In this document: piece after piece, positions 5,075 through 57,368 of the stretch
How the letters are laid out: the number at the start of each line of letters is the position of its first letter
Numbering within the stretch: the stretch's first letter is position 1
Source of the DNA: Leucoraja ocellata
Lineage: Eukaryota
Length of the DNA stretch: 64,000 nucleotides
Assembly (NCBI GenBank): GCA_036785375.1
Contig: JAWMAR010000104.1
Span: forward strand, 4,402,001-4,466,000
Direction: 5' to 3'
Notes under the pieces: generated by a model
Databases searched by the model: none
Told to the model about the DNA's origin: nothing
What the model saw: the letters and a program-made list of their open reading frames with translations, nothing else
Program-made: the position numbers and the translations under genes

Positions 5075-5185
5075 GAAAGGAAGGGGTAGATCACTCAAAG
5101 CGACTCGACGTCTTATTGGTAGACAGCGACACAAAGTGTTCCGCCCAAATAACTGCAACAACTGTTCTTAAAGCTGGCCTGTTCG
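5075..5185 (-). promoter_or_regulatory. Protocadherin promoter with CSE (CGCT box/CTCF site) and CCAAT, unit 1
   Basis: Minus strand GTGTCGCTGTCTACCAAT at 5132-5115, TGCAGTT module starting at 5157, GCTTTAAGAA at 5174-5165. About 250 bp upstream of the ATG and conserved before all six ORFs. Confidence 0.85.
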
Positions 5186-6229
5186 ATCAATATTTACATG
5201 CATTTTATTTATAATCGTAGACAAATAGAAACAGTTCACTGAATCAAATTCAATTGATAGTGAATACGTCATGACAAGAAAGGAAGGCAAACGTACGCTT
5301 TCTACAGGAATGCACGTGCACCATTCGCCAATTATTAGTTGTCACGATGTCATGGCATAGGTCTCAGGTGGCGCGACATAAGTAAAGTCTGTAAAAAAAG
5401 ATGAGAATAATACCCAGAAAAATCTAATTTAGTCTAAATCTTCAAGCATTCAGCTATGCACCCGAGAACGTGTCTGTTGCTTATGAATATGAAATACAGG
5501 GAATAGGCCCCCGTACTGTCGAACTACACCGTTTTTAATGTAATCATGGCTGGCTAGTTTGGCGCTTCAAGCACGCATTCCTGTCTACGGGCATTACTTA
5601 TATTAACGCCCTTGCTTATCCATAGCCTTCCAGTTTCCTTGAGATAAAGTAAATTGTTTTCATTTCGACACGAGTGTTTAGCTCTGCGCAATGACTCCTG
5701 GTTACGAAGCCTCACACATGATTAAACATTATCTTCATATCTGCCTTGTCGAGACACTCATCCCCCTCCGCCGCTCCTCCTTCACCCCTTCATCGTCTTG
5801 TGTGCCTACATGTATAACATTTTCGCAAATGTCCAGTCTATTCCAGATATACGGCTCGAAAGCCTTCCTCGAACTGCCTACTGTGCATTAACATTCCATA
5901 AACATAGAAACCCATAATAAACACAGACTCCCGACTTTCTCTCACCAGTGTCCCACATGCCCGATAAGCAACGTCCGATTTTTACATTCATCTGCAGTCG
6001 CAATACAACTCTGCGAGCTTTCCAAGATATTTATTGCATCTGCTTCGTTGTTTTACCTTGAATGTGCTTGCCGTTAATTGTAGATTCTGGGATATATAAC
6101 AATTGAAAAAACATAGTATTTTTTTAATCGAACGAGTATAATTTGTGTAGCCGCTAATTTTATTAACCGAACAATACAGCACCAGTCAGCTAGCCACAAG
6201 ATAAACATACTCGTCTTCCGTTGGATGAT

Positions 6230-9200
6230 AGTGTGGAGAGCCGAGTCACTTTGGCCTCGAACCGTCGTCCGTCGAGCTCGTACACTCGCGTAGACCTGGT
6301 ATGATCTGGGCCGACCAATCAACGCCGATCTGCGTGGGTGCAGCGGACGACGGAGCTTCATTTCTCAGTCAACGGGTGAACACACACACCTTGCCATTTT
6401 GTACTAATTGTTGAGCTGTCTCGTTTAAATATTAAACTGTTTACACAACACATGAACCTCTTCAGTGGTGACCCAACGATCCAAAACGGCATCTTTTGGA
6501 TTTCATCATGCTAGAAGGAGACCCCAGATCAGCAGAACGCAGTTTCACTCTAACTGCTCTCCTTCTGGACATCACAGCCCCAAGTTTGGCTTGAATAAGC
6601 CAAAACCTAATTCCACATCCGCCAGATAACTGCCGACGTCAACAAGTACTACCACGTGGTCAGTGCGCTGGACCACAAATCCGCCGGGAGCCTCATCGAT
6701 TACCTTCGCCAGCCACCAGCCGACAACAAGTACGAAGGGATCAAGACGGTCCTCAAGTACACATTCGGTCTCAGCTACAGCGACAGGGCAGCAAAACTCT
6801 TGTACAAGGATGGCCTTGGCGACCGCAAACCATCGGTGTACTTGAAATAAATGTTCACCCTGATGGATGCCTCCTTTTCGAACAGGGCTTCCTCGAGCAC
6901 ATGCCTGAGGACATCCGCCTGCTCCTCGCGGCTGATTATTTCACCGAATCCCGACGGCTGGCAGCCGGTGCAGATGTGCTGTGGCAGGCCAAACATCAGG
7001 GTGGAGCTACCATCAATCGGGTGGTGGCTGTGCCTCGGCAGGTCATAATGGTGGTCCCAACCTCCATGGAATGAGTGGCAGTAATGTCGGCCACACAGGG
7101 CGCCAGCAAGGACAAGTGGTGCTACTACCACCAAAGGTGGGGCTTCGAGGCCAGCCGATGCCAACCACCATGCACACACCTGGGAAAAGCCACGGACGGC
7201 CGGCAGTAGTAGCAACTACCGCCGGCCAAAATCATCATCGCCTCTACACCTGGGATCATCAGTCGGGGCGACGTTTTCTCGCTGACACGGGAGTGGAGGT
7301 CAGTGTTTTGCCCCCCTCGGGCACTGACACTGGTTCCGGAAAGAAGGGGCTTCCCCTGACTACAGCCAACAGATTAGATTAGAATAGATTAGATCCTTTA
7401 TTTGTCATTCAGACCATTCTGTCTGAACGAAATGTCATTGCCTGCAGCCATACATATAATAATAAACAACAAAACACACAATAAACACAAATTAACATCC
7501 ACCACAGTGAGTTCACCAGGCACCCCCTGTGATGGAGGCAAAAGTCTTAAGGTTACTGTCTCTTCCCTCCTCATTCTCCCTCTGCGCTAAGGCGATATGT
7601 TGTTACCCCACCAGGCGATGATAGTCAGTCCCGCGGATCAACCAAGCTCCGCGGCACGGGGTGGTCGAAGCTGCCGCCCTCCAGTCCAGCGGACGCAGCT
7701 GTTGCCGCGGAAGCTCCGGAAAACAGGCACCAGCCTGTGACCTGCGAGCTCCGGACGATGTCGTCCACTGGCCCACGGCCGAGCCCCGGTTCATGTTGCC
7801 GCCGCCGGAACGCCGCCTCAGCCACCGGAGCACCGTCTCAGCCTCAGCCACCGGAGCACCGTCTCAGCCCCGCGCCAGGCCGCCCTCAAGGAGCACCGTC
7901 TCAGCCCCGCGCCGGGCCGCCCTCACCGGAGCGCCGTCTCAGCCCTGCGCCGGGCCGCCCTCACCGGAGCGCCGTCTCAGCCCCGAGTCGTGCCGCTGCC
8001 ACTGGAGCGCCTGAACGCCGCCACAGCTCCGAATTCGACTAGCCTCGCATTGGTGAGTCCTGGCTGGCTCTGCCTCCGGAACCTCGAGGTCGGTCGCAGG
8101 TTGGAGGCCGCCAGCTCCGCCATTAGGCCTCAGCGTCCGAATATACGGGGGCCACACGATCCCGCGCAACATCAACTCCTGTCGCTTCAATTCGACCATT
8201 ACCATCGCCAACGTCTCACAACCACTGCTGGGCACCGACTTCCTACGGGCGCAATCCCTGCTGGTCGACGTGAAAGGCCAACGTCTCGTTAATTCTGAGA
8301 CGTTGGAGCCGATCGCCGAATGGACTGGACCTCCGTCAACGGATACGCCAGGATCTTGGCTGATTTCCCTGACATCATAACTCCCCGCTTCACAACGTCC
8401 AGCCCCAAGCATGGGGTGAAGCTCCATATCCCCACCACCCAACCACCACTCCATGCATGCACAAGCAGGCTGGCCCCCGATCAACTCCAACTGGCCAAAG
8501 ACGAGTTCCGCAAGATGGAGGAAATGGGCATAGTGCGCTGCTCAGGCAGCCCGTGGGCATCCCTGCCATCTCAACGAGGTCACAACAGCCGACCGGTACA
8601 CTGTCCCTCACATCCGAAATTTCACGGCAAACCTGGATGGTGACAAGGTATTTTTCAAGATCAACCTGGTATGCGGCTACCATCAGATTCTGGTCCACCC
8701 AGCCGACATCCGTAAGACGGCCTTCATCACCCCGTTCGGGCTCTTTAAGTTCCTGTGCATGTCTCTCGGCCTCACGAACGGTGCCTAAACGTTCTACCGG
8801 CTCATTGACACGGTGGGCCGCGGGCTGGACTTCATGTTCATCTACCTCGACGACATCCTCGTCGCCAGCCGCAGGAACACCACGCACCCTCCCGGCTGCT
8901 CTGCCAGCGGCTCAACGAGCATGGCCATACCATCAACCTTGCCAAGTGTCAGTTTGGCCTTACTTCTATCAACTTCCTCAGCTACCACATCAACCAGCAT
9001 AGAGCACCCACTCCCAACCAAGGTCGGTGCCATCCGCAAGTGTGCCAAACTCTCTACTGTGAAATGACTCCAAGAGTGTGTTGGCATGGTCAACTTGTAC
9101 AAGCACGTCGTGCCAGCAGCTGCCAGGATTATGCAACCGCTGTTCAAGGCCCTGACCAAAGAGGCAAAAGAGATCATTTGGGATACGCGGCCACATCAGA

Positions 9201-15095: not shown

Positions 15096-15225
15096 AATAT
15101 ATCCGCAGACCAAGTACCCCCTTAAGAAGATATGATGTCATGTAAATATGTCCTTGGTAGCAGAAGACGAAACTGTTTTAAATTTCGACAAAGAGTCGCT
15201 GACAAATTGAGGATACACCTGTTAT

Positions 15226-15227
<2 letters not shown>

Positions 15228-15285
<58 letters not shown>

Positions 15286-16455: not shown

Positions 16456-18836
16456 TTATGATCTTGTACTGTTCTGCAAGATACTCAGCTCGTTGAGAGG
16501 CAAGGTAGAATGACAGGGCTTTAAAAATAAAAAATCACTTTTCGAAGATTCTGGTGATAAACATACAGGGTAACGATAACCTTCGGAATGCCCAGATCTA
16601 ACATACCTTGGATCTTCGGTTACATTTCTACTCGCAGTAAAAGCGTTATCCAAATTCCTGGGATCGGAACAGCAGAATCTCGATCTGTAGACGTCGTCAA
16701 TATTTCTATCTTGTTTACATTTCAGCATCACCAAAAAAATAATAGTCGCCAGAAACAGGAAGGATGTTGAGCCTAAGACGATGATTAAATAAAGATTGAG
16801 GTTCCATTCTCGCAGCTCGATTGAACTTTCATAAGGTGGTACCGTACTGTTGGGCAGAATTGAGAAAAATATTATCGCTGTGCTGGAGAGGCTCGGTTGT
16901 CCATTGTCCTTCACACAGACGACTATTCTGCTTGTGATCAACTCTTGGTCTCTCAAACTTCGAGTTGCTCTGATTTCACCGGAGAGAACACCCACAGTGA
17001 ACAAGCTGGGATCAGTGAGTTCCAGTAACTGATAGGAAAGTCTTGCGTTTTGACCCGAATCTGCATCCGTCGCGCTTATCTTGGTGACCAAATAGCCTGG
17101 ATATAGTGACTGAGGCACAATCTCCACTGATGTTGAATCGTTCAATATCAGAGGTGAAACAATTTTTGGAATGTTGTCATTTTGGTCCAAAATAATTATG
17201 TTTACGGTTGCAATACTGCTCATTGGGGGAGATCCAGAGTCCTGAGCTTGAACGTTGAGTTGGAAGTGTTTCAGATTCTCATAGTCAAAAGAAATCAATG
17301 CATAAATGTTGCCATTTTTGGCAATAATAGTGACAACTCTGGATACAGAACGCTGATCCCTTATGCTGTCCAGAACAGTATACATCACCTCACCATTTTT
17401 ATCAATGTCTAAATCTAATGCAGAGACCGAAAATATGGACGAACCGGGCGTATTGTTTTCTGTGACATACGCGTAATATGATGATTGGGTGAACTGAGGC
17501 GCGTTGTCATTTATATCAGACACAAGAATCAAGATAGTTCTTTGTGTTGAAAGAGGAGGCGAACCGTTATCCCAGGCCAAAATAGAGATGTTATATTTTG
17601 CGGTTGTTTCACGATCCAAACCTTCACGAGTAACCAACCTGTAGTCATTCCTCGAAGATTTTTGAAGGGTGAACGGCAATTCTTTGGGTATCTGGCAGTG
17701 AATCTTGCTATTTTCCCCAGAATCTAAATCGGTTATCCTGATTGTAGCAACCATCGTCCCAGGCTGCGCATTTTCTTGAACAGTGCTGGAAGACGAGATT
17801 AACTGTATTACAGGAGCATTGTCGTTCACATCAGACAATGTGATGATGACCTTTGTGTGTGCTGTCACCGCAGGTGAACCATTGTCTAGTGCCTGCGCAT
17901 CAAGTTCGTAATAAGAGGATTTCTCAAAGTTTAGCGTTCCCTCAACTCTAATCTGTCCGGTTTGCGAATCCAATCTGAACAACTCGCGAATCAATTGAGG
18001 AACGTGATCTGTGAAAGTGTAGGTGAGTTCAGCATTGCTGCCTTCGTCCAGATCTTTAGCATTGATTGTGGTCACCAGTGTTCCTTTTGGGACGTTTTCT
18101 GCTAAAGTTACTGTGTAGGATTCACGATCGAATACAGGAGCATTGTCATTCGCGTCCACAACAGCAATGATAATCCGAGCCGTGCCTGATCTGCAAGGCG
18201 CACCACCATCATGGGCGGTTAACGTGAGTTGAAAGGTTGCCTGCTGTTCACGGTCCAACGGTTTTTCCAATTGCAGCTCGGCAGTCTTACTCCCTCCGCG
18301 TCTTGACTGCACCTTAATACCAAAGTGCTCGTTTGGACTGATCTCGTAAGTGTTAACTGCATTCGTACCAACATCGGGATCGCGCGCGCTCTTCAACGGG
18401 AAGCGCGCACCCGGTGTACTTAGCTCACTGATCTGCAAGTATAATTCATCCTTCTGAAAAAATGGGGAATTATCGTTTATGTCCAAGATTTCAACGGTTA
18501 CACTGTGCATTTCCTCGGGGTCGTAGAGCACAATTTGACAAGAAAGGGAGCAGGCAAGGCTTTGTCTACACAGATGCTCTCGGTCAATTCTTTCATTCAC
18601 AAATAAATCACCATTGGCCGCATTTACCTGCAGGTATTGATTCATTTCATCGGCACCAAATTGACTTTGCGAACCGATAACTCCCAAACATTTAATCTTA
18701 AATCCTCTGCGATATTCCCCACCAAGGTCCCGAGATCAGTTTCCTCGGTTATCGAGTAGCGAAGCTCTGCCGAGACTATGGCCGACGCGCAAAGAAGGAA
18801 AGTGAATGATGCACCGTTCATCAATGCATTCGCCAT
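16456..18836 (-). pseudogene. Clustered protocadherin unit 2 with a 1-nt frameshift in EC1 (recent pseudogene, null allele or sequence error)
   Basis: The N-terminus (MANALMNG...VWELSVRKVNLV) is in ORF 18642-18836 and the rest (DEMNQYLQVN...NSTRS*) in ORF 16456-18687. One base is missing at ~18653/18654 (gtg-cc-gat versus gtc-tcc-gat in unit 3). The remainder is stop-free. Confidence 0.85.
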
Positions 18837-19020: not shown

Positions 19021-19130
19021 GTGGGCAGGGTCGATCTCTCACAGTCTCGACGCTCCCTATTGGTAGACAGCGACACGAAGAGTTCCGACCAATAATTGCA
19101 GGACACATTTTTAAAGCAAGTCTGTCTCCA
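19021..19130 (-). promoter_or_regulatory. Protocadherin promoter with CSE, unit 2
   Basis: GTGTCGCTGTCTACCAAT at 19076-19059, TGCAATT module, GCTTTAAAAA at 19117-19108. Confidence 0.85.
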
Positions 19131-23228: not shown

Positions 23229-23368
23229 NNNNNNNNNNNNNNNNNNNNNNNNNNNNNNNNNNNNNNNNNNNNNNNNNNNNNNNNNNNNNNNNNNNNNNNN
23301 NNNNNNNNNNNNNNNNNNNNNNNNNNNNNNNNNNNNNNNNNNNNNNNNNNNNNNNNNNNNNNNNNNNN
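23229..23368. other. Assembly gap
   Basis: 140 N. Confidence 1.
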
Positions 23369-24137: not shown

Positions 24138-26519
24138 TCATTTTCTTGCGCTGTTTTCCCTGACACTCGCCTCATTGAAAGGCAATGTTGGATGGCATGG
24201 TTTCAGAAAGAGGAAATCACTTTTCGAAGATTCAGGTGACAAACACACAGTATAACGGTAACCTTCGGTCTGACCAGAACCAATATAATCCGCATCCTCG
24301 TTTGCAACTTGACGCTGATGAAAGATCATATCCGAATTATTACGGTCCGAGCAGCAAACGCTAGTGCTGTACCTTTCTTCAATATTTCTGTCTTGTTTAA
24401 ACTTCACCACCAGCAAACAAATAATAGTTATCAGAAACAGAAAAGACGTTGATCCTAAAGCGACGACTAAATACAGATTGAGATTCAAACGTTGTTTCTT
24501 CTCATTGGGCTCGATGGAGATTTCAGACGATAGCACTGTACTGTTAGGCAAGAATATGAAAATGACTGTGGCTGTACTGGAAAGGCTGGGTTGTCCATTA
24601 TCCTTTACACAGAGGACAAATATGTTTGTGATCAGGTCTTGGTCTTCTAAACTTCTAGTTGCTCGGATTTCACCAGATAGAACATCCAAAGTGAACAAAC
24701 TGTTGTCTGTGGGTTCCAATTGTAAATAGGAAAGCCTTGCGTTTTGACCAGAATCTGCATCAGTCGCAATTACCTTGGTGACCAAGTAGCCCGAGTGTAC
24801 AGACTGGGGCACAATGTCCACCGATGCTGAACCATTCCATATCAAAGGCGAAACAATTATTGGGGCATTGTCATTTTGGTCCAAAATTATAACATTTACG
24901 GTAACAGTGCCGCTCAGTGATGGAGTTCCAGAATCCCGAGCTTGCACTTTGAATTGGAAATGCTTCAATTCTTCATAGTCAAAGGAAATCAGTGCGTAAA
25001 TGTCGCCATTCTTAGAGTTCATTGTGACAAATCGCGACTCGGAGCCCTCATCTAGAATGCTGTATATTACGTCACCGTTTGGACCAATATCAGAATCGAT
25101 TGCGGAAACAGCAAATACGGAAGATCCCGGCGTGTTGTTTTCCATTAAATAAACATTATAGTTTGTTTGTGTGAATCGAGGTGAGTTATCATTTATGTCA
25201 GAAACTGAAATCAAGACATTTTCCTGCGATGAAAGAGACGGTGAACCACCATCCCATGCTGATATAGAGATGTTATACACTGTGGTTATTTCACGATCCA
25301 AAACATCACTGGTAATCAAATTGTAATTATTGATAGAATATTGTTCAAGTTTAAACGGAAACTCTTTTGGAATTTGACAATAGACATGACCATTTTTCTC
25401 GGAATCTAGATCAGTTACACTGATTGATGCAACGACGGTTCCTGGTTGTGCGTTTTCAGGAACCGTACTGGAAGACGAGATGACCTGTATCTCGGGAGCA
25501 TTGTCATTTACATCAGTTATGGTGATAATAACCTTTGCATGACCCGTCAATCGGGGTGAACCATTGTCTATTGCTTTTACATCAAGTTCATAAAAGTGAG
25601 ATTCCTCAAAATTTAGCGTTCCTTCAACAGTGATCTGTCCTTTTTGCGGATCCAGTTTGAAGAGCTCACGGATCGATTGAGGAACGTGGTTTGTGAAACT
25701 GTATGTGAGTGCTGCATTGCTGCCTTCATCCAAATCGGCTGCGGTGATTTTTGTCGCCAGCGTTCCTTTCGGGGCGTTCTCTGATAACGTTGCGCTGTAT
25801 GTTTCATATTCAAATTGAGGGGCGTTGTCATTCCCATCCTCTACTGTAATGATAACGCGGGCTGTACCTGATCTGCGCGGATTCCCACCATCAATGGCGG
25901 TGAGTGTGAGCTGAAACGTCGCCTGCTGCTCACGGTCCAAGGTTTTCTCCAACAGCAGCTCTGCAGTCTTACTGCCTCCCCGTCTTGTCTGCACTTTAAT
26001 ACCGAAGTGGTCGTTCGGACTGATCTGGTAAGTGTTAATTGTATTTGTACCGACATCGGGATCACTCGCGCTCTCGAAAGGAAACCGCGCTCCCGGCGTA
26101 ATCTGTTCACTTATATTGAAATAATATTCACTCTCATGAAAACTGGGGGAATTATCGTTTATATCGAGGATTGTAACCGCAATAGTATATATTTCCTTAG
26201 GATTATGGAGCGCAATCTGTAAAGACAGGGAGCACGTAAGCCTTTGCTTGCACAGCTGCTCTCTGTCGATTCTTTCGCTCACAAATAAATGACCATCATC
26301 CACATTTACCTCGAGGAACTGCTTCCTTTCATCGGAGACCAGGATAGGGCTGCGAGCCGGTAACTCCCATGCGTTTAGTCTTAAATCCTGAGCGATATTC
26401 CCAACAAAGGCTCTAAGCTCCATTTCCTCGGGAATCGAGTAATGAAGCTGCGCCGAGACTATGCCCGACATGCAGACAAGGAAAGCAAAAGACGACACGC
26501 AGTTCAATACATTCGCCAT
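24138..26519 (-). CDS. Clustered protocadherin unit 3 (793 aa from MANVLN)
   Basis: Intact ORF with 6 EC repeats, TM and YTVCLSPESSKSDFLFLKP tail. Start placed at the ATG at 26519 by the shared GAACAATGGCG context and signal peptide, not at the ORF-track start 26570. Confidence 0.95.
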   Translation of the reverse strand: MANVLNCVSSFAFLVCMSGIVSAQLHYSIPEEMELRAFVGNIAQDLRLNAWELPARSPILVSDERKQFLEVNVDDGHLFVSERIDREQLCKQRLTCSLSLQIALHNPKEIYTIAVTILDINDNSPSFHESEYYFNISEQITPGARFPFESASDPDVGTNTINTYQISPNDHFGIKVQTRRGGSKTAELLLEKTLDREQQATFQLTLTAIDGGNPRRSGTARVIITVEDGNDNAPQFEYETYSATLSENAPKGTLATKITAADLDEGSNAALTYSFTNHVPQSIRELFKLDPQKGQITVEGTLNFEESHFYELDVKAIDNGSPRLTGHAKVIITITDVNDNAPEIQVISSSSTVPENAQPGTVVASISVTDLDSEKNGHVYCQIPKEFPFKLEQYSINNYNLITSDVLDREITTVYNISISAWDGGSPSLSSQENVLISVSDINDNSPRFTQTNYNVYLMENNTPGSSVFAVSAIDSDIGPNGDVIYSILDEGSESRFVTMNSKNGDIYALISFDYEELKHFQFKVQARDSGTPSLSGTVTVNVIILDQNDNAPIIVSPLIWNGSASVDIVPQSVHSGYLVTKVIATDADSGQNARLSYLQLEPTDNSLFTLDVLSGEIRATRSLEDQDLITNIFVLCVKDNGQPSLSSTATVIFIFLPNSTVLSSEISIEPNEKKQRLNLNLYLVVALGSTSFLFLITIICLLVVKFKQDRNIEERYSTSVCCSDRNNSDMIFHQRQVANEDADYIGSGQTEGYRYTVCLSPESSKSDFLFLKPCHPTLPFNEASVRENSARK

Positions 26520-26694: not shown

Positions 26695-26802
26695 CGGAGA
26701 GGGGTCGATCTCTTGCAGCCTCTCGTTCCTCATTGGTGGACAGCGACACGAGGAGTTCCAACCAATAACTGCAGCAAATGTTCTTAAAGGGTGACTGCTT
26801 CC
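26695..26802 (-). promoter_or_regulatory. Protocadherin promoter with CSE, unit 3
   Basis: GTGTCGCTGTCCACCAAT at 26749-26732, TGCAGTT starting at 26773, CCTTTAAGAA at 26790-26781. Confidence 0.85.
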
Positions 26803-29463: not shown

Positions 29464-29464
29464 A

Positions 29465-34281: not shown

Positions 34282-36612
34282 TTATTTCACTGCGCCGTTA
34301 TTCGGAACGTCCGAATCATTGAAAGGTAAGGTATCATGACAAGGCTTAAGAAACAAAAAATCACTCTTCGATGACTCTGGAGATAAGCAGACGGTATAAT
34401 TATAGCCATCGTTTTGACGAACATCCGAATAATTGAAATAATTATGTGTTGTAGGTACACTTAAGGCAGCAGGTCTTTCTGAACCATGTTTAAGCTTCAA
34501 CACAACCAGGAAAATTATGATGACAAGAAACACAAAGGAAGTTGACCCTAAAGCGATGATTAAGTAGTGATTCACTGGTGAAAATTGGGTGGAACTCCTG
34601 TCGTTATCTGTTCGTTTGAAAGTTTTTTCAGTGACATTGGATAAAATTGAAAATGTAACTGTGACCGTACTGGAGAGGATCGGCTCACCATTGTCTTTTA
34701 CGCAGATGAGTAGTCTATCCGAACTTACGTCTTCCTTTCTTAAACTTCGCGTTGCTCTTATTTCTCCAGAGAGAAGATCCAACGTAAACAGAGTGGGGTC
34801 ACTGGCTTCCAAAATTTGATAACGCAGACGAGAGTTCTGACCGGAATCCGCGTCTGTCGCGATTACTTTTGTGATCACATATTCTGGAAATGTTAACTGT
34901 GGGTCTATCTCCACAGATGCAGTGCTGTTCCATGTTAAAGGTGAAATGATAACGGGAGCGTTATCATTTTGGTCCAAGATAATAATATTCACGATAACTG
35001 CGGAACTTAGTGGAGGAGATCCAGCATCCTGGGCTTGAAGTTTGATCTGGAAATGCTTCCGTTCTTCATAGTCAAAGGAGTACAGTGCGTAAATAATTCC
35101 ACTTCTTGAGTTAATAGTAACATACGGAGATGCGGAAACCCCTTGCACGTGATTCTCAATAATAGAGTAGGCGACTTCCCCGTTCTGATTTAAGTCTGGA
35201 TCTGAAGCCGTTACAGCAAATATGGAAGCGCCCGGTGTATTGTTCTCCGCTACGTACGCACTATAGGCAGGTTGGGTAAAACTTGGGATGTTATCATTTA
35301 TATCAGATATGGAAACAAAAACTGTTTTATTTGTGGAAAGTGGAGGAGAGCCGCCATCCCAGGCTGAAATAGTGATGTTGTATATCGGGACAACTTCGCG
35401 GTTCAAAACACCATTCGTGACCAATTTGTAGTTTGTCCTCGAAGTCTTAACCAATTTAAATGGAAGATGCTCTGGAACCTGACATTGAACCTCCCCATAT
35501 TCGCCAGAATCTAAATCTGTTACGCTAATCATTGATGTGACTGTACCGACAGGGGCATCTTCATGCACTGCGCCAGTCATCACAGTCACCTCAATTGTGG
35601 GAACGTTATCATTCGTATCTAGTAATTCGACTATAACTTTGGCATTTCCAGTCATGCCCGCTGAACCATTGTCTACAACTTGTACATCAAGTTCGTACAT
35701 ATTTGTTTCTTCATAATCGAATGCACCGTGAACTCTAATCTCCCCAGTTATCTGGTCTAATTTAAACAACTCGCGTATATTTTGGGGCACATAACTTGTG
35801 AAAGAATATGTTAGCTCTGCGTTCACCCCTTCATCCAAATCAACAGCGTTAATTTTAGTTAATAATGTGCCTACTGCGACGTTTTCAACTACGTGCACTC
35901 GATAAACTTCACGGTCAAAAATGGGTGCATTATCATTGACGTCTGCCACAGCAATGTTTATTTGAGTTGTACCAGATCTTTGAGGGATGCCACCATCAAT
36001 TGCGGTCAGTATCAAATGATAGGTCGATTGTTGCTCACGATCTAAGCTTTTCTCTAATACCAGCAGGGCATCTTTGCTCCCATCTGTTCTCGTCTGCATC
36101 TTGAGACCGAAGTGTTCATTTGAACTAACACGGTAGATGCTGATTGTGTTTGTGCCCACGTCAGGGTCGTACGCGCTCTCGAGGGGAAAGCGCGCTCCTG
36201 TCGCAACCAATTCATTCATCTGCAAGGAGAATTCTGCTTTCGGAAATACGGGTGAATTGTCATTTATATCTAGGATCTCCACTGCAATCTGATGCATTTC
36301 AAAAGGACCGTCGAGGATTATCTGGTAATTCAGGATACAGACAAAGCTTTGCTTACATATTTCTTCCCTATCAATTCTTTCATTCACAAATAAAATGCCA
36401 TTCTTCTGATTTACCTCCATATATTTCTTGCTTCCTTCACAGACAAGCCGAAACATTCGTGGCGATAATTCCCAAACGTTCAGTTTCAAATCCTCGGCGA
36501 TATTTCCCACAGTTGTTCCTGGCGCCTGCTCCTCTGGAATCGAATAGTCAATTTGCCCCGAAACCGGGCCCAATGCAAAAAGAAGGAAGAAATTGCAAAT
36601 TGCTAGCGCCAT
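34282..36612 (-). CDS. Clustered protocadherin unit 4 (776 aa)
   Basis: Intact ORF with signal peptide, QIDYSIPEE, 6 EC repeats, TM, shortened juxtamembrane region and YTVCLSPESSKSDFLFLKP. Confidence 0.95.
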   Translation of the reverse strand: MALAICNFFLLFALGPVSGQIDYSIPEEQAPGTTVGNIAEDLKLNVWELSPRMFRLVCEGSKKYMEVNQKNGILFVNERIDREEICKQSFVCILNYQIILDGPFEMHQIAVEILDINDNSPVFPKAEFSLQMNELVATGARFPLESAYDPDVGTNTISIYRVSSNEHFGLKMQTRTDGSKDALLVLEKSLDREQQSTYHLILTAIDGGIPQRSGTTQINIAVADVNDNAPIFDREVYRVHVVENVAVGTLLTKINAVDLDEGVNAELTYSFTSYVPQNIRELFKLDQITGEIRVHGAFDYEETNMYELDVQVVDNGSAGMTGNAKVIVELLDTNDNVPTIEVTVMTGAVHEDAPVGTVTSMISVTDLDSGEYGEVQCQVPEHLPFKLVKTSRTNYKLVTNGVLNREVVPIYNITISAWDGGSPPLSTNKTVFVSISDINDNIPSFTQPAYSAYVAENNTPGASIFAVTASDPDLNQNGEVAYSIIENHVQGVSASPYVTINSRSGIIYALYSFDYEERKHFQIKLQAQDAGSPPLSSAVIVNIIILDQNDNAPVIISPLTWNSTASVEIDPQLTFPEYVITKVIATDADSGQNSRLRYQILEASDPTLFTLDLLSGEIRATRSLRKEDVSSDRLLICVKDNGEPILSSTVTVTFSILSNVTEKTFKRTDNDRSSTQFSPVNHYLIIALGSTSFVFLVIIIFLVVLKLKHGSERPAALSVPTTHNYFNYSDVRQNDGYNYTVCLSPESSKSDFLFLKPCHDTLPFNDSDVPNNGAVK

Positions 36613-36821: not shown

Positions 36822-36930
36822 GAAGGGGCGGGTGGATCTCTGGCAACACATCGGCTGCTTATTGGTAGACAGCGACACGATGAGCCTCAACCAATAATTG
36901 CAGCAGCCGCTCTTAAAGCGAGACTGCTCC
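36822..36930 (-). promoter_or_regulatory. Protocadherin promoter with CSE, unit 4
   Basis: GTGTCGCTGTCTACCAAT at 36878-36861, TGCAATT module, GCTTTAAGA at 36919-36911, GC box GGGGCGGG near 36825. Confidence 0.85.
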
Positions 36931-40260: not shown

Positions 40261-40273
40261 CCACTCTCATTTT

Positions 40274-47181: not shown

Positions 47182-47235
<54 letters not shown>

Positions 47236-48032: not shown

Positions 48033-50423
48033 TTAAGCAATATTAGGATTGAGGCCAGACATCGGAGTTCCGCAAGGCTTCAAGAAGAGAAAATCGCTTT
48101 TGGCCGATTCTGGAGACAGGCAGACCGAGTAATTATGCGCCTCTGGCACGCGGGATAGCCGGCCAGTCCCTGGATAACGTAACGTTTCCTCCAATGCAGC
48201 CCTCCGAGCAAATGCATCGTCAGAATTTCCAGGTTTGCAGCAACAACTGGTAGAATTATACTCTTGGTTGCTATTTCCATCTTGTTTACATTTGATGCTG
48301 ATCAGTAGAATGATTATCACGAGAAAGAGCACAGAAGTGCAACCGAAAATGACGATTAAGTGAAGATTCAGATCAGAGAAATATTCGCGATTTGTCACCA
48401 AATTTTCACTCTCGACGATTCTTTCAGTGATATTCTCCAGAATTGTAACTTGGATTGTAACCATACTGGAGAGATTCGGTTGTCCATTATCCTTTACTAA
48501 GATGACGAGAGTTTGTGTGGTGGCATCGGACTCCAGTAGTTTCCGCGCGGTTCTGATTTCGCCAGAATTTTTCCCAACGTTGAACATACTGGGATCACTT
48601 GAACTCTGCATGTGATAAAATAGCCTCGCGTTCTGACCTGAATCTGCATCATTTGCCATTACCTTCGTGACCAGGTACCCAGGGGCCGCCGACTGGGGCA
48701 GGATCACCACTGCTGCCGACCCACTTTGTTCTGTTGGTGAACCAATTACCGGCGCGTTGTCATTTTGATCCAGGATGATCACATTCACCGTGGTGCTGCT
48801 GCTCAGCGGAGGCACCCCCGCGTCACGGGCTTGAACATGGAACTGGAAGTTTTTGAGTTTCTCATAGTCAAAAGAGCGCATTGCATATATAGTGCCGTTC
48901 ATCGAGTTAATGCTGACCTGAGTGGGCAATGGCATGTCTTGGATGCGATTTCCTAATAAGTAGTAAGAAACATATGAATTCTGGTTCAGATCCCTATCTA
49001 TCGCGGTCACTGCGAAAATCGAAGTCCCCGGAGCATTGTTTTCCATCACATATATGTTGTAGGATGGCTCAGAAAATCGTGGTACGTTATCATTAATATC
49101 AGCAATCACAATCTGAATAGTTTTATTTGTCGATAGTGAAGGCGATCCCAGGTCCCAGGCGTCAATGTTTACTTGATACACAGGGATAGATTCACGATCC
49201 AACGGTTCACTTGTAATCAACTCATAATGATTCATCGACGATGTTTGAAGAATGAATGGGATGTTCTTTGGAATCTCGCAGGAAACCTGCCCATTTTCTC
49301 CAGTGTCGCCGTCTATAACATTGACCAATGTTATTAAAGTTCCTGGCGAAGCATTTTCCGGAACTGTGTTCGTGGTAGACATCACTTTTACCTCGGGTGC
49401 ATTGTCGTTTTCGTCAATTATCTTGACTAACACTTTCGCATGCCCTGTAGCGGCGGGAGAACCGTGGTCAACAGCTTGAACATTGAGTGAATAGCCTTTT
49501 GCTTCCTCAAAGTCTATAACCCCTTCAGTTCGAATTTCCCCACTGTCTGGGTCCAAGCTGAACAAATCCCGAACTTTTTGTGAAGTTAGTTTGCTGAAAA
49601 AATATGTCAGCTCAGCATTTAACCCTTCATCCAGGTCAGTGGCTTCAACGTGCGCCACCAATGTACCAAGGGGTGTGTTTTCTCTGAGGTGGCTCCTGTA
49701 AATATTCTGATTGAATACAGGAGGATTGTCGTTGTTGTCCACTACAGTAACAAGGATCTGAGCTGTGCCGGTTCTCTGAGGGGTCCCACCATCAGTCGCT
49801 GTCAGAACCAACTGAAAGGACGAGTGCAGCTCTCGGTCCAGAGGTTTCTCTAACACCAACTCAACAATTATAATTCCATCATCCGTTCTCTGTGTCTTTA
49901 AATTAAAGTAGTCACTGGAACTGATAGTGTAAGAGGCGATTGTATTTGTTCCAACGTCCGGGTCTTCCGCGCTCTCCAGAGGGTAGGCGACCCCGGGTGT
50001 CATCGTTTCGACAATCTGTAAGGCGATCGTTCCTCCCCTGAATGCGGGGGCATTGTCGTTCACATCAAGTATCTCCACCTCCCCGCGATGCACCGCTAAA
50101 GGATTTTCCAGTATTATTTTAAAGGAAATTGTACATATTGCTGCTTGCCCACAGATACGTTCTCTGTCGATTTTTTCACGCATAGACAATATCCCATTTT
50201 CCACGTTCATCTTCATATACTGTCCTCCGTCATCAGAAATCAGCCGAAATTTACGAGCAGACAATTGCGGTATAGCCAGTCCCAAATCTTGAGCGATATT
50301 CCCGACCAAAGCCCCTTCCTCCATTTCCTCATAAACAGAATAGCGAATTTGTCCAGAAATCAGTCCCGTCGTACATACCAGAATTATGAAGCCAGCGACG
50401 TTGTTGATCGCCGAATTCGCCAT
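48033..50423 (-). CDS. Clustered protocadherin unit 5 (796 aa)
   Basis: Intact ORF with QIRYSVYEE, 6 EC repeats, TM and YSVCLSPESAKSDFLFLKP. Confidence 0.95.
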   Translation of the reverse strand: MANSAINNVAGFIILVCTTGLISGQIRYSVYEEMEEGALVGNIAQDLGLAIPQLSARKFRLISDDGGQYMKMNVENGILSMREKIDRERICGQAAICTISFKIILENPLAVHRGEVEILDVNDNAPAFRGGTIALQIVETMTPGVAYPLESAEDPDVGTNTIASYTISSSDYFNLKTQRTDDGIIIVELVLEKPLDRELHSSFQLVLTATDGGTPQRTGTAQILVTVVDNNDNPPVFNQNIYRSHLRENTPLGTLVAHVEATDLDEGLNAELTYFFSKLTSQKVRDLFSLDPDSGEIRTEGVIDFEEAKGYSLNVQAVDHGSPAATGHAKVLVKIIDENDNAPEVKVMSTTNTVPENASPGTLITLVNVIDGDTGENGQVSCEIPKNIPFILQTSSMNHYELITSEPLDRESIPVYQVNIDAWDLGSPSLSTNKTIQIVIADINDNVPRFSEPSYNIYVMENNAPGTSIFAVTAIDRDLNQNSYVSYYLLGNRIQDMPLPTQVSINSMNGTIYAMRSFDYEKLKNFQFHVQARDAGVPPLSSSTTVNVIILDQNDNAPVIGSPTEQSGSAAVVILPQSAAPGYLVTKVMANDADSGQNARLFYHMQSSSDPSMFNVGKNSGEIRTARKLLESDATTQTLVILVKDNGQPNLSSMVTIQVTILENITERIVESENLVTNREYFSDLNLHLIVIFGCTSVLFLVIIILLISIKCKQDGNSNQEYNSTSCCCKPGNSDDAFARRAALEETLRYPGTGRLSRVPEAHNYSVCLSPESAKSDFLFLKPCGTPMSGLNPNIA

Positions 50424-50619
50424 TGTTCAACAATGAACTGCTTTGCCAAATCGCGTACTGTTCGATTAAACAAGACAACCTGGCCTTGCCTACAATTGTC
50501 GCAGCGATGTTTTTCGGTCCTGAATGCATAAATGTATTTGTTTTATCTTTGTCCACTGGACGCCACGGTCTAACCGCGAATTGTTCCTGTTTCTCGTCAA
50601 TTCTGATCTATGGCTATGA

Positions 50620-50730
50620 TGGGGCGGGCTAATGGATCCAATGCTGCGTTTTAGGTTCTTATTGGTACACAGCGACACAACCAGTCCCTTTCTAAAATTA
50701 CATCGACATTTCTTAAAGCGAGACTGCTCT
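50620..50730 (-). promoter_or_regulatory. Protocadherin promoter with CSE, unit 5
   Basis: GTGTCGCTGTGTACCAAT at 50678-50661, TGTAATT module, GCTTTAAGAA at 50719-50710, GC box at 50621. Confidence 0.85.
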
Positions 50731-51246
50731 GTTAATCGTTTAATGGCGCACAACCACCAACCTTTGTCATTGACATGTCCATCAACCTAACTTGACAATA
50801 TACAAATATTCAAATCTATTTCACACATTATATTTCTATATCTGGCATTTCCCCCAGTTCTGCCTCTCCCCTTTTCCATATTTCCTCACAATCAGCCTGA
50901 AGACGTTCTATGAGATGCTGCCCGACTTCCCGATTAACTCCAACACTTTGTGTCCTCCTCTTTACCTACTGTGATACTTATGAACTACTGCACTGGCTAC
51001 TACGGGGTTATCAGGGTGTGAAATTAAATTGAATATAGTGTAATACAAAACATATTTGGTTCCACATCATTTTTGACACAGATCACACTATGAAAATAAA
51101 CATTGCCCAAAACATCTCTTGTTTCCTCTCACATTACAGCTATGGTCTATACTATTTGATATTTGCACGTTTAGAACAACGTTCGGACTGTCCGTCCCAT
51201 CTGTGTCTCCAGTAATTGTGTAAAGTTCTATCAGCATTCTCTTTAT

Positions 51247-51492: not shown

Positions 51493-52779
51493 ATCCTGCG
51501 CAAAATAAACATCCACGTTTGTGAAACACCGTGTTATAGCTATTTGGCTCCTTATTCGGGCAGCATTCTGATAAACTTCCTACACTTTCCAAAATTGTGC
51601 ATCTGCTTCCAGCCAAGACTCGAACAGGACTGCACACAATTCTTCAAACGCAGCTGTCAACGTTTTATAAAACGGCATCATGACCTCCTGACTATTATTC
51701 TCCATGCGCCGAGCGATGAAACCATGCTCACGATACGTTTTCTTTAAAACTCTATCCACTTGTGTTTCTACTTTCAGAGAGCTATCGAATTGGACTCCAA
51801 GAGCACTCTGTACATCATTGGTGTTAAGTGTTCAGTGATTAACGGCATACTTTCCCTGGGACATTTCACACCCGGAAATGCCGGGCCTCACAAGTGCCCG
51901 GATTAAATTCCACCCAGGCCTTCTCCCCCTATATATGCAAATTATCTTTGTGTTGCTGTTCCAATTGACAATATTTGTTGCTGACTGCTACTTTATAAAT
52001 GGTTGCGGTCTTGAAACTTCCTAACTTACTAACTAATGCGCGTACAATTTGCTTCAATGTATATAGCAAACAAAGGGTGGCCCGGTGTTGATTTATGTGG
52101 AACACCATTGGTCACATACCTCCAGCTGGAACAATACACATTTATCACCACTGCCCTTTGGCATCTATAGATAACCCAGTTGCGGACCCATGGATACCAA
52201 CGGGGTGAATACGTTAAAATATTTGGCTAGAAATTAGAGGTTGGCAAGAATTTGGCCATGTGTGTGTTAGAAGGACCAACCATTTCCAATATATATCGAT
52301 CCGAATAAACTTAATAGTACTCCCTTCACATGACCTATTATTCTTGAGTTAAACAATTCTGCTGCTTAAAAGAGTGCTGCATGCAAGATTATTTGAACAA
52401 ATTTCCATTACTTCAAACAGAGTAATTTTCTTTGCTATACGAAGACGTTTATTCGTGATTTTTCAATGTTAGTTCTTCAGGATCGGTAGATATATGCATG
52501 CTTTGTGTGGCTGACCTAACAACAACGAAAATGCGATGGTCATGCCGTGACCAGTCGTTTGTCTCCTTAAGAGTGAAGTGGAAACAATTTCACACACATC
52601 GATTCCACACACCAATTATTATATTTTATAACACTGAAACATTCCTTTTCGAACTAAAATGAAATAATAACACACACACGTGGAGTATTTTCTTGAATGC
52701 GCAATTCGCAGCGACCCACACCGCTGCATGAAAATATGGGTAGCAATCATGTCGGCCAACTTTTGCTGCTACGAGATCA

Positions 52780-54650
52780 TTGAATCACTGCTACGAGACC
52801 CTGCTGTTATATCCAATGCTTTCAACCAGCATTTCTCCACTGTATGTAGCTCTACTGTATTTGACTCATCTATTATATGTGCCCCATCTCAATTATCAAC
52901 TCGGTGGCTAAAATCCTCGAGAAACTAGTGTTCAACCAGCTATCACATTATGGCTCAACTTTCAACATTCTATCTCCATGCCAGTCTGGGTTCAGACCTA
53001 ATCACTCCACAACTACAGCTCTGTTAAAACTCACCAGCGATGTGTTCACTGCTTCTGAGGATGGTAAACTCACCGGTGCCATCTTTCTTGATCTAACCAA
53101 GGCCTTTGATGTTGTTGACCACTACCTACTGCTTGATAAACTTTACTCTATTGGTCTTTCTCAAAACAATCTACCGTGGTTTAACTCACACCTTCATAAC
53201 AGACGCCAATGTGTCACCTTTAATGGAAGTCAATACAATTCCTTAATTGTTGAGAACCCGCAAGGTTCGTCCTTGGGACCACTCCTTTTCTCTATTTTCA
53301 TAAACGACCTCCCTAATATCTGTTCTGACTGTCAAACACCACTATATGCCGATGATGCAGTGCTATATACATCTAGCACTAACAAGTCTGAAATTGAAAG
53401 AACCCTTCAATCAGATCTTACTTCTGTTCAGAAATGGCTATTATTTTTACAAATTAATTTTAAATAAAAATAAATCATGCAGTGTGTTATTTGGTACCAG
53501 ACAAGGCCTTGGTAATTCTGTAGATCTGATTATATCATTTAATGAAGGATCACCATTAGAACAAGTAATGAACTTCAAATATCTTGGTGTTTGGCTCGAC
53601 CCAACGCTTTCATTTACGCAGCATAGTGAGACGATTACTAAAAAACTCAGCTGTAATCTAGCTATTCTTTACCCCCATATAAATTGTTTCACCTTTCAGA
53701 TGAGAAAAATAATTATCTCTCAACTACTACTACCAACACTGGATCATGCTGATATTGTCTATCAGAATACATTTGATACACATCTTCAACCCCTAATGTA
53801 GTTTATAATAGTCTTTGCAGATTTATTTTAAGGTGTCCATATATAACTCACCACTGTTCTATGTACGAAACTCTAAACTGGTTATCCCCCCACGCTCGAA
53901 GATGCTACCACTGGTTCCAGTTCATCTTTAAATGCATCCATCTCAATTACCCTTCTTATTTAAAACAAGACCTATTACCATACACACCCTCATATTCACT
54001 AAGACATATTCAGCAACCCTTCTTTTTCATTCCAAGAACTAACAAAGAAATTGGGAGACGTGCATTTAAATTCAAAGCTCCTTTTGACTGGAACACTCTG
54101 CCTAGTACCATAAGAACTATTAGCTCATTTCGTCTATTTAAAAATACACTTTTACCCTTCCTTATAAAACCGTGTACCTGTTTCTAGTATTAGAGTCTTC
54201 GAGCTTCTTTATCTAGCTTGCTCTGTGTGTGATCATTTGGCATAACTATTGTATATGCATGGCCATTACACTTATGTATTATTGTATTGCATAGTGTAAC
54301 AAGGTCTTATATTGTATTATGTCACAACATCATGAAATAATATATCATGTAATAATGTTGATAGTATGTATTAACGTACGATGTATGATAGGTGGTATAT
54401 GGTATTATGCATTAACATTATGCTGTAACACATAACTATTGTTATTATTGGATAAAGCCAATTAACAATTGTTATAAACTATAACAAGTGGGGATGGAGG
54501 GGTTTTGGGATTGATGTGTGGGTAGGTGGGTAGGTGGGTCAATGAGAGCCTCTATGTATGTTATCTTGTGCTGTATGTTCTATCTTGGACCCCCTTCGAA
54601 AACGAGATGTCCGTCCACCTCAAGGGGTTATCCATGAATAAACTTGTTTC
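52780..54650 (+). mobile_element. 5'-truncated L2-group (Crack/Daphne-like) LINE
   Basis: RT motifs QSGFRPNHSTTTAL, IFLDLTKAFDVVDH, PQGSSLGPLLFSIFINDL, LYADD, FKYLGVWLD, and C-terminal GRRAFKFKAPFDWNTLP. AT-rich 3' UTR ends in a CCCCTT...AAGGGG hairpin and AATAAA. Frameshifted. Confidence 0.85.
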
Positions 54651-54660
54651 AAATGTAGCA

Positions 54661-57051
54661 TTACGGTTGAGATGTGCGAGCGACGCATGGCTTCAAATAA
54701 AGAAAATCGCTTTTTGCTGACTCCGGAGAAAGACAGACCGAATAGCTCTGCACTTGTGGCCCTTGCACCATCCGGCCAGTCCCAGGATAGCGTAAAGTTT
54801 CCTCCATTGCAGGTCTTGGATTGAACGTATCATTTGAATCTCCAAGTTTGTGACAGTAACTGGGCGAATTATACTCTTGGATAACATTTCTATCCCGTTT
54901 GCATTTGATGCTAATCAGTAGAATTATGATTACAAGAAAGAGAACGGAAGTGCAGCCGAAAATAACGATAAAGTAAAGATGCAGGTCCGCGTAATGTTGG
55001 CGATTAGATTCTAACTTATTGCTTTCGGCCATTCTCTCAGTGATATTCGCAAGAATTGCAATTTGGATTGTCACCATGCTGGAGAGACTCGGCTGCCCAT
55101 TGTCCTTCGCCACGATGCTGAGAGTTTGTGTTGTGATGTCGGACTGGATGATGCGTCGCGCTGTTCTGATTTCACCTGAGATTTTACCGACATTAAATAA
55201 ACTGGGATCACTTGAACTCTGCATCTGATAAAACAGCCGTGCGTTCTGACCGGAATCGGCATCAGTTGCCATTATCTTCGTGACCAAGTACCCTTGGGTC
55301 GCTGACCGTGGGAGGATCTCCAGTAATGCTGACGAATTCTGCGCTGAAGGTGAAATTATTACTGGAACGTTGTCATTTTGATCCAGAATGATCACATTCA
55401 CTGCAACACTGCTGCTTTGCGGGGGTACACCAGCGTCACGGGCTTGAACATAAATCTTCACATTTTTGAGTTTCTCATAGTCAAAAGAGCGCAGTGTGTA
55501 AATTGTGCCAGTCATCGAATTGATGTCTAGGTAGCTGGGCACTGGGAATTCTTGGACAATATTTTGCAGGAAGGAGTAAGAAACATAGGAATTCTGATCC
55601 AGGTCAGGATCCGAAGCAGTCACGGCAAAAATAGATACCCCTGGAGCGCTGTTTTCCATCACATATATGCTGTATGAGGGTTCGGAAAAACGCGGTGCGT
55701 TATCATTTATATCAGAAATTAAAACATGTATGGTTTTATTGCTTGACAGTGAGGGTGACCCGAAGTCCCAAGCTACAAAGTGTATTTTATATTCGGGAAC
55801 AGATTCACGGTCCAATGGTTCACTAGTAATCAACTCGAAATGATTCTCCGACGACATTTGAAGAGTGAATGGGATGTTACTTGGTATCTCACAGCGCACC
55901 TCTCCGTTTTCATCAGAATCCTGATCAATAACATTAATCAAAGTTATTAACGTTCCCACCTGTGCGTTTTCCGGAACGTTGTTCGTGTTTGATGTCACTT
56001 TTATCTCGGGTGCGTGGTCGTTTACATCAATTACCTTGATCAATAACTTGCAGTGCCCGGTAATTGTAGGAGAACCGTGATCCATGGCTTGAATGTCAAT
56101 GGAATAACTGCTTGCTTCTTCAAAATCCAGCTCTCTTTTAGTTCGAATCTCCCCGATGTCGGGGTCCAAACTAAACAGTTCGCGAATTCTTGGTGATGTT
56201 AATTTGTTGAAAGAATATGTTAGATCAGCATTCAACCCTTCGTCCAAGTCAGTGGCTTTAACTTTCATCATTAAGGTACCAGGAGGTGTATCTTCATTTA
56301 AACTGACTCTATAAATTTCGTGATCGAATATAGGGGGATTATCATTGATGTCCATTACGGTAATTAAAATCTGTGCTGTGCCGGATCTCTGAGGCTTTCC
56401 ACCATCAGTCGCTGTCAGCGTCAGCTGAAAAGACGAGTGCAATTCCCGATCCAAAGGTTTTTCCAGTTGTAACTTGGCAATTAGAATACCATCCTCCGTT
56501 CGCTGACTTTTTAAACTAAAATATTCATTTGAGCTGAGTGTGTAAGCAGCGATCGTATTTATACCAACGTCCGGATCTTGCGCATTGTCCAGGGGGAAGT
56601 GGACGCCTGGCGCAATCGCTTCAGACATCTGCAGCATAATGCTGCTCTCCGGAAAAGTGGGAGAATTATCATTTACGTCCAGAATCTCCACTTCTGCGCG
56701 ATATATTGCCAAAGGTTTTTCCAGTATGATTTTAAAATGAATGGTACATACAGTTGCTTGTCCGCAAATATGCTCCCTGTCGATGATTTCATGAATAGAC
56801 AATATCGCATTATCTAAATTTACCTTTATGTATTGCGCTCCGTCAACAGAGGTTAGCCGAAAATGGCGTGCGGACAATTGTTGTACATTCAATCCCAAAT
56901 CTTGAGCGATATTCCCGACAAAAGCGCCTTCGTTAATTTCCTCGGGAATAGAATAGCGAATTTGCCCGAAAATCAGACTGGGTGCACACACCAGCATCAC
57001 GAAAGTAAACGTTTTGAAAGCAATGGCGTTGCTGATATCCGAATTCGCCAT
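54661..57051 (-). CDS. Clustered protocadherin unit 6 (796 aa from MANSDISN)
   Basis: Intact ORF and closest paralog of unit 5. Start placed at the ATG at 57051 (GAACAATGGCG context); an in-frame upstream ATG exists at 57156. Confidence 0.95.
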   Translation of the reverse strand: MANSDISNAIAFKTFTFVMLVCAPSLIFGQIRYSIPEEINEGAFVGNIAQDLGLNVQQLSARHFRLTSVDGAQYIKVNLDNAILSIHEIIDREHICGQATVCTIHFKIILEKPLAIYRAEVEILDVNDNSPTFPESSIMLQMSEAIAPGVHFPLDNAQDPDVGINTIAAYTLSSNEYFSLKSQRTEDGILIAKLQLEKPLDRELHSSFQLTLTATDGGKPQRSGTAQILITVMDINDNPPIFDHEIYRVSLNEDTPPGTLMMKVKATDLDEGLNADLTYSFNKLTSPRIRELFSLDPDIGEIRTKRELDFEEASSYSIDIQAMDHGSPTITGHCKLLIKVIDVNDHAPEIKVTSNTNNVPENAQVGTLITLINVIDQDSDENGEVRCEIPSNIPFTLQMSSENHFELITSEPLDRESVPEYKIHFVAWDFGSPSLSSNKTIHVLISDINDNAPRFSEPSYSIYVMENSAPGVSIFAVTASDPDLDQNSYVSYSFLQNIVQEFPVPSYLDINSMTGTIYTLRSFDYEKLKNVKIYVQARDAGVPPQSSSVAVNVIILDQNDNVPVIISPSAQNSSALLEILPRSATQGYLVTKIMATDADSGQNARLFYQMQSSSDPSLFNVGKISGEIRTARRIIQSDITTQTLSIVAKDNGQPSLSSMVTIQIAILANITERMAESNKLESNRQHYADLHLYFIVIFGCTSVLFLVIIILLISIKCKRDRNVIQEYNSPSYCHKLGDSNDTFNPRPAMEETLRYPGTGRMVQGPQVQSYSVCLSPESAKSDFLYLKPCVARTSQP

Positions 57052-57249
57052 TGTTCCGCGCTGAATTATTTTCCAAAAGCAGGCCTCTGCTCGATTAGAC
57101 CTTAAAACAGCTCTTACCACGAAATCACTGGAGCAAAATCTACATCGTGAATTCATACAAACATGAAGTTAATTCTTCTTGGCTTGAATCCGCAATCGGA
57201 ACGTACATTGCTCCTGTTTTTCTGGCTATTATGATCTTGTCGTTCTGAA

Positions 57250-57368
57250 GTGGGGGGGGGGGGGGGCAATGGATCTATCGCTGTGTTTGAGATTCTTATT
57301 GGTATACAGCGACACAACCAGTCCCGTTCAACAACTACACCGGCAGTTCTTAAAGCGGAACTGCTCTG
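57250..57368 (-). promoter_or_regulatory. Protocadherin promoter with CSE, unit 6
   Basis: GTGTCGCTGTATACCAAT at 57315-57298, TGTAGTT module, GCTTTAAGAA at 57356-57347. Confidence 0.85.

Follow-up and report, generated by a model that had tools for sequence, protein, structure and literature searches.

We analysed a 64-kb stretch of the genome of the skate Leucoraja ocellata (contig JAWMAR010000104.1, positions 4,402,001 to 4,466,000; hereafter the window), in which six clustered protocadherin (Pcdh) genes share a short sequence module at a fixed distance from the CTCF sites of their promoters. The genes, g1 to g6, are present as tandem variable exons of ~2.4 kb each on the minus strand, and the best protein matches of these single large exons are clustered protocadherins. 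The g5 protein shares 98% amino-acid identity with a skate "protocadherin gamma-C5-like" protein and ~60-71% with most of the ray and shark relatives listed, and the window therefore represents a skate cluster. Cartilaginous fish have Pcdh subclusters without orthologs in bony vertebrates (PMC2764143; here and below, statements from cited papers refer to excerpts of them). The ATG positions of g1 to g6 are 4864, 18836, 26519, 36612, 50423 and 57051, and the exons are as follows:

2471..4864, minus strand: g1 protocadherin variable exon (exon call)
16459..18836, minus strand: g2 protocadherin variable exon, with a frame-breaking deletion of one base at 18654-18655
24141..26519, minus strand: g3 protocadherin variable exon (exon call)
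34285..36612, minus strand: g4 protocadherin variable exon (exon call)
48036..50423, minus strand: g5 protocadherin variable exon (protein match and sense RNA reads)
54664..57051, minus strand: g6 protocadherin variable exon (exon call)

Given its frame break, g2 is either a pseudogene or an assembly error.

Promoter layout and the CTCF site

An earlier reading of the window from its letters alone (the sequence-only reading) had described a rigidly spaced cassette in all six promoters, made of GA(G/A)CAG-N4-GCTTTAAGAA, TG(C/T)A(A/G)TT, GTGTCGCTGT-NN-ACCAAT, GATC and a C-rich box. Comparison of these six promoters from one species bore out its coordinates throughout: the last bases of CCAAT lie at 5115, 19059, 26732, 36861, 50661 and 57298, those of CTTTAA at 5168, 19111, 26784, 36913, 50713 and 57350, and the distances between them are 53, 52, 52, 52, 52 and 52 bp, all on the minus (sense) strand. 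Its GTGTCGCTGT-NN-ACCAAT, TG(C/T)A(A/G)TT and GATC elements recur in 6/6 promoters, whereas the C-rich box has no invariant position (0/11 columns); the upstream motif as literally written matches only three of the six, and it is a relaxed form, CAG-N5-CTTTAA(G/A)A, that is common to all. The CGCT box of the conserved sequence element (CSE) lies 226-264 bp upstream of the ATG in every promoter, in the same sense orientation, and its CpG is invariant.

Much of this layout is that of a CTCF site. Fingers 3-7 of CTCF read a 15-bp core and fingers 9-11 an upstream motif resembling CTGCAGTT, with a variable linker between the two (PMC12885311), and this two-part recognition is pan-vertebrate, including lamprey (PMC5504073). 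In the skate, the distance from TG(C/T)A(A/G)TT downstream to GTGTCGCT (measured to the eighth core base) is 24 bp in five promoters and 25 bp in g1; the IL3 probe shown in PMC12885311 has 24 bp, as counted by eye, from the T of its TGCAG to the eighth core base. As an outside control, we used protocadherin gene starts on metagenome contigs, picked for the similarity of their proteins and with no regard to promoter motifs. This yielded 80 loci, eight of which were vertebrate Pcdh gene starts, teleost-like by reading of their proteins, and seven of these were usable (the flank of L008 was too short); L062 was not a gene start, and the other 71 loci, of low identity or internal, entered a pattern count only. 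The CSE was located by profile in six of the seven teleost promoters and placed by eye in L003. A TG is present at 24 or 25 bp in 7/7 of them, for which the chance expectation is ~4e-6 (one core, that of L003, being placed by eye).

On sequence grounds, TG(C/T)A(A/G)TT is the CTCF upstream motif, read by zinc fingers (ZF) 9-11. Because skate and teleosts share the 24/25-bp geometry, ~42 of the 52 bp are accounted for by a single CTCF site and the ACCAAT with which the known CSE ends, and the additional base of g1, which falls in the flexible CTCF linker, accounts for the single 53-bp exception. The rigid spacing of the sequence-only reading is thus real but mostly CTCF geometry, the upstream motif having been missed; the intervening DNA that it took to have diverged is largely upstream motif, linker, core and ACCAAT, leaving 7 bp of free spacer between the CTCF site and the module. 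Each promoter appears to carry a forward-oriented, full-length CTCF site, which CTCF presumably binds in the skate (geometry per PMC12885311):

5115..5157, minus strand: g1 CTCF site and CSE, with upstream motif at 5157-5149, linker longer by one base (25-bp spacing), core with CGCT box at 5139-5125 and CCAAT at 5119-5115
19059..19100, minus strand: g2 CTCF site and CSE, 24-bp spacing, CCAAT at 19063-19059
26732..26773, minus strand: g3 CTCF site and CSE, 24-bp spacing, CCAAT at 26736-26732
36861..36902, minus strand: g4 CTCF site and CSE, 24-bp spacing, CCAAT at 36865-36861
50661..50702, minus strand: g5 CTCF site and CSE, 24-bp spacing, CCAAT at 50665-50661
57298..57339, minus strand: g6 CTCF site and CSE, 24-bp spacing, CCAAT at 57302-57298

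Core positions 8-15 match the CTCF consensus with one deviation, while positions 1-7 are degenerate (2/7 invariant), and a strict CTCF consensus scan misses all six promoter sites. The first core positions read ACTC, where the CTCF consensus has CCAC, in four teleost loci (L001, L002, L004 and L005) as well as in skate g2 and g3, and this deviation is apparently a conserved Pcdh-specific feature. Two further motif copies were observed near these sites. A second TGCAATT, with no matching core, lies at 19141-19135 in g2, 25 bp upstream of the CTTTAA, and a second, reversed CCAAT overlaps the end of the upstream motif and the linker in g2 (19093-19089), g3 (26766-26762) and g4 (36895-36891) and is absent from g1, g5 and g6.

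Downstream of the CTCF site, the invariant GATC starts 26-27 bp after the start of CCAAT. Together with the C-rich stretch, it is the probable core-promoter zone:

50620..50638, minus strand: g5 GATC and C-rich stretch, just upstream of the 5' extent of RNA
5092, 19036, 26710, 36838 and 57275, minus strand: GATC starts of g1, g2, g3, g4 and g6

Two RNA runs from a related species (tissue not recorded) cover the g5 exon at a depth of 1-7 reads. At this low depth the g5 RNA reaches only ~50578, that is, ~83 bp downstream of CCAAT, and in the stranded run the exon reads are sense only, which agrees with a start that lies 60-85 bp after CCAAT, beyond GATC. Depth is zero in both directions over 50618-50872, where unstable RNAs would be missed with only 1-7 reads nearby.

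NF-Y CCAAT boxes usually lie ~60-100 bp upstream of the start site. The CCAAT pentamer is intact in 6/6 skate promoters, and its position makes NF-Y binding plausible; standing 5 bp from the end of the core, it would crowd CTCF fingers 1-3. In the teleosts, CCAAT follows the core in 0/7 promoters, with ACCA in three of them. Among the literature matches listed, there was no paper on NF-Y and the CSE of Pcdh promoters.

The upstream module

The module, CAG-N5-CTTTAA(G/A)A, starts ~50 bp upstream of the CGCT box, and each copy was recovered by both profile and pattern:

5165..5184, minus strand: g1 module (CAG-N5-CTTTAAGA)
19108..19127, minus strand: g2 module
26781..26800, minus strand: g3 module
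36910..36929, minus strand: g4 module
50710..50729, minus strand: g5 module
57347..57366, minus strand: g6 module

The pattern has six matches in the 64 kb, all at promoters, compared with a mean of 0.13 and a largest count of 2 in 100 shuffles. When each copy was held out in turn, no site outside the six reached the score of the held-out copy (128,000 positions), and with a profile of all six the next best site in the window scored 6.5 versus 22-34 for the modules. The most deviant copy is that of g2, with a leave-one-out score of 9.0 versus 20-32 for the other five. The coincidence of this weakest copy with the frame break of g2 would fit a decaying pseudogene, an assembly error being the other possibility.

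Conservation of the module exceeds that of neutral sequence in the same genes. Ten of its 20 columns are invariant, compared with 4 of 78 four-fold degenerate sites, which are near saturation (pairwise Jukes-Cantor distances 0.7-2.6). In neutral simulations on the four-fold tree, 0 of 20,000 regions of 200 bp reached 10 invariant positions in any 20 columns, and 20 of 20,000 did so at 0.7 times the four-fold rate. The spacers beside the module are at neutral identity (0.38 and 0.39, within the 0.27-0.55 of four-fold pairs), which makes gene conversion or a slowly evolving tract unlikely. In all six promoters, the start of CTTTAA lies 16 bp before the CTCF upstream motif and CAG lies 8 bp before CTTTAA; the absence of indels from both spacers has a P of 0.0005-0.05, depending on the indel rate assumed. 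No CpG in the module is invariant. The proposal of the sequence-only reading that the module lies just outside the CTCF footprint therefore holds: it is outside the 11-finger site, is conserved above neutral and keeps a fixed offset, all of which fits a second DNA-binding factor.

The module is also old. In a quick tree of 36 proteins, shark sequences grouped with g1 (99) and with g5-g6 (99), falling on both sides of the split between g1-g4 and g5-g6 with SH-like approximate likelihood ratio test (SH-aLRT) values of 99-100. With sharks on both sides of this paralog split, the split and the module predate the divergence of sharks and rays. So far, the module has been seen only in this skate cluster and in one related species. 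Elsewhere, module profile scores at the expected place were negative in all six profile-located teleost promoters, and among the 80 metagenome loci the pattern occurred in one, L021, away from any gene start. A search of a prokaryote contig collection gave 0 matches to the cassette pattern and is uninformative for Pcdh.

In the related species, the g5 module carries two changes, at 50720 and 50723, both in the variable N5 spacer, and one of them removes the only CpG of the g5 module; this is in line, if weakly, with the pattern among the paralogs. No change is listed over 50643-50719 (3 of the contig's 31 differences are not displayed). Upstream of the g5 module, the ~120 bp at 50730-50850 carry one listed change, compared with 7.8% in the region of the 5' untranslated region, and are possibly a gene-specific conserved element.

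The rest of the window includes LINE-type reverse-transcriptase fragments, identified from their translations (12483-13711 and 52865-53464), a short high-copy repeat upstream of g5 (50912-50955), a long CT-rich simple repeat (62200-63500) and N gaps at 23229-23368 and 62947-63089.

What may act at the module

These promoters are known CTCF-based promoters with a new, old and strongly selected add-on, to which a partner protein may bind. With modest confidence, we favour the explanation that a second sequence-specific protein occupies the module, on the ZF11 flank of CTCF, and helps to open or hold a weak CTCF site at all promoters of the subcluster alike. Both the existence of this protein and its activating role are suggestions from sequence. 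Each promoter would then consist, in order, of the CTCF upstream motif for fingers 9-11, a flexible linker, a degenerate core with the CGCT box, ACCAAT, GATC and the start, and the bipartite CAG-N5-CTTTAA(G/A)A would have been added on the outer (ZF11) flank and kept by purifying selection, most likely through a second protein bound at a fixed distance from CTCF. This factor would probably serve every promoter of the cartilaginous-fish subcluster equally, either making the site accessible or steadying CTCF on its weak core, and would license promoters rather than pick one. In mammals, CTCF binds Pcdh promoters weakly and in a ZF11-dependent manner (PMC11217373), and methylation at the CGCT CpG blocks it (PMC7811963). 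The CGCT box keeps its CpG in all six skate promoters. The module is likewise common to all six but has no CpG shared by every copy, and for these reasons it resembles a licence rather than the switch.

Several observations weigh against this explanation. The sample is six promoters from one species, and whether the factor activates or represses is a matter of inference. When the simulated rate was set to half that of four-fold sites, 1,756 of 20,000 regions attained 10 invariant columns, and the 7-bp spacer without indels is weak evidence when taken alone (P 0.01-0.18 by assumed indel rate). In the related species, the cassette is changed at 2 of 87 sites versus 17 of 219 downstream (P 0.11) and the module is not singled out; 50643-50850 is conserved throughout (3/208 versus 17/219, P 0.002, or 0.03 if the hidden changes all lie there). 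Finally, in none of the 7 teleost promoters do the 60 bp preceding the CTCF upstream motif contain CTTTAA, so the module does not belong to the choice mechanism across vertebrates as a whole, an absence tempered by the fact that teleost subclusters are not orthologous to those of cartilaginous fish (PMC2764143).

Candidates dismissed as the module factor were TCF/LEF, STAT, BCL6, CHR (LIN54), ZNF143/THAP11, BANP and ZBED1, whose consensuses mismatch the module at invariant bases.

It seems unlikely to us that there is no second protein and that the module is instead extended CTCF recognition, or a DNA-shape or nucleosome-positioning signal. In its favour are the fixed 16-bp offset and the A/T-rich core of the module, the GCAGT in 4/6 copies, which resembles the upstream motif, and the existence of non-canonical upstream motifs (PMC11217373). 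Those motifs, however, were sought no more than 20 bp from the core, short of the module; fingers 9-11 end at the upstream motif (PMC12885311); and no core is found 17-18 bp after the second GCAGT. The ten invariant bases, grouped in two blocks, point to recognition of the bases themselves, and teleost sites of the same CTCF geometry do without the module.

A repressor site that silences unchosen promoters or non-neural cells, in the manner of REST/NRSF or Wiz, is a rather doubtful alternative. Repressors do act on Pcdh promoters across vertebrates (PMC2926608, PMC8096226, PMC13395409), and the lack of a good canonical neuron-restrictive silencer element (NRSE) in the window, where one match with two mismatches lies at 10087, leaves room for another silencer. 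The module is nevertheless unlike the NRSE consensus printed in PMC2926608, its sequence gives no sign of the direction of its effect, and its tight offset from CTCF suits cooperation at least as well.

We consider it improbable that CTTTAA(G/A)A is a TATA-like site for TBP, from which transcription would either begin upstream and run through the CTCF site or leave divergently in the antisense direction. The motif does resemble TATA variants, most strongly in g2, and the 52 bp between CCAAT and module would suit a divergent promoter. A TATA box places the start 25-35 bp downstream of itself. TBP would leave the invariant CAG block unexplained, however, and g5 RNA, sense only in the stranded run, stops at ~50578 with no depth at the module; these few reads from the related species give no support for a TATA-like start there in either direction, at a depth too low to exclude one.

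Just as improbable, in our judgement, is a larger role in which the module is an ancient cartilaginous-fish factor site that gates CTCF loading and cohesin capture, acting as a second, CpG-independent input to stochastic choice and taking the place of the exonic CTCF site and antisense RNA through which choice is switched in mammalian Pcdh-alpha (10.1101/360206). The six skate exons gave no clear sign of either in weak tests; the strict scan found one candidate within an exon, at 49453, but the same scan misses the promoter sites.

That the module is a neutral duplication relic or a product of gene conversion deserves next to no credence: the six promoters are paralogs from only three or four independent lineages, but four-fold sites of the same genes are near saturation with 4/78 invariant, the invariant blocks beside spacers of neutral identity already contradict it, and gene conversion is reported to be limited in elephant shark (PMC2764143).

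Relation to known protocadherin promoters

Neurons pick a few Pcdh promoters from many that are nearly identical, by a mechanism not yet settled; the factors known to help CTCF at Pcdh (ZFP661, Wiz and REST) come from mammals and teleosts. A 20-bp element that is older than the shark-ray split and keeps a constant offset from CTCF, on its unexplored outer side, offers a precise bait for a cofactor. Its reach is limited: none of the bony-fish promoters looked at has the module, and apart from it the cassette is a textbook one. Among the literature matches listed, the module is undescribed, provisionally so because the elephant-shark cluster paper may show a longer motif; its A/T core had no match in the supplements of three papers, which list primers and not whole promoters.

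The closest known system is the clustered Pcdh CSE, or promoter CTCF-binding site (pCBS). As there, a CGCT box precedes each of the six skate variable exons in forward orientation, and four skate copies share their final 12 bases with the CSE primer for human PCDHA6 (PMC11667065, Table S7); a CGCT element has also been reported for elephant shark (cited in PMC2926608), and the structure of the Pcdh gamma-b7 CSE has been solved with ZF6-11 (PMC11217373). The skate copies differ in ending in a full CCAAT (6/6) and in having a paralog-shared module upstream of the CTCF site, which the excerpted accounts of the CSE do not describe. Two-part CTCF recognition covers the TG(C/T)A(A/G)TT block as well as the 52/53-bp spacing, but leaves the module 16 bp further up unexplained.

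Mammalian Pcdh promoters carry a 20-bp specific sequence element (SSE) directly upstream of the CSE, which is required, gene-specific and CTCF-bound, and insertions of 5, 10 or 15 bp between SSE and CSE abolish activity (PMC3333863). The skate module lies further out and is common to 6/6 paralogs, and thus shares neither the adjacency nor the gene specificity of the SSE, which probably corresponds to the region of upstream motif and linker.

The zinc-finger proteins ZFP661/ZNF2 and Wiz co-occupy Pcdh CTCF sites, where they adjust the capture of cohesin and the balance of isoforms. ZFP661, a therian factor, binds at a subset of promoters within the loop anchor, on the CTCF N-terminal side (PMC11343191), and Wiz summits lie between CTCF and RAD21 (PMC13395409). 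The skate proposal likewise places a second factor beside CTCF, but on the opposite (ZF11) side and at all six promoters, unlike a ZFP661 site.

The NRSEs of the fugu and human clusters are a different motif (PMC2926608, PMC8096226). An NRSE half-site scan with spacings of 2 or 7-9 bp gave no match at the six promoters, the only right-half-like string being in the CSE. This string, at 26749-26738 in the g3 CSE, and the CSEs of g1, g2 and g4 resemble the REST right half-site on the other strand, with no left half-site, and the g3 CSE shares 12 bases with human HS5-1 oligos, one of which is labelled NRSE. A canonical NRSE does occur at L001:625-652, ~600 bp upstream of a teleost Pcdh gene, an arrangement also reported for fugu; no NRSE this good is present in the skate window.

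Finally, the Xenopus pcdh-gamma2 15-36 promoters carry an unexplained 13-bp subgroup motif ~200 bp upstream of the ATG (PMC4978886). Compared by description, the Xenopus motif replaces the CSE, whereas the skate module accompanies it. Both are lineage- and subgroup-specific Pcdh promoter motifs, and the skate module suggests that each subcluster evolved its own add-on to a shared CTCF site.

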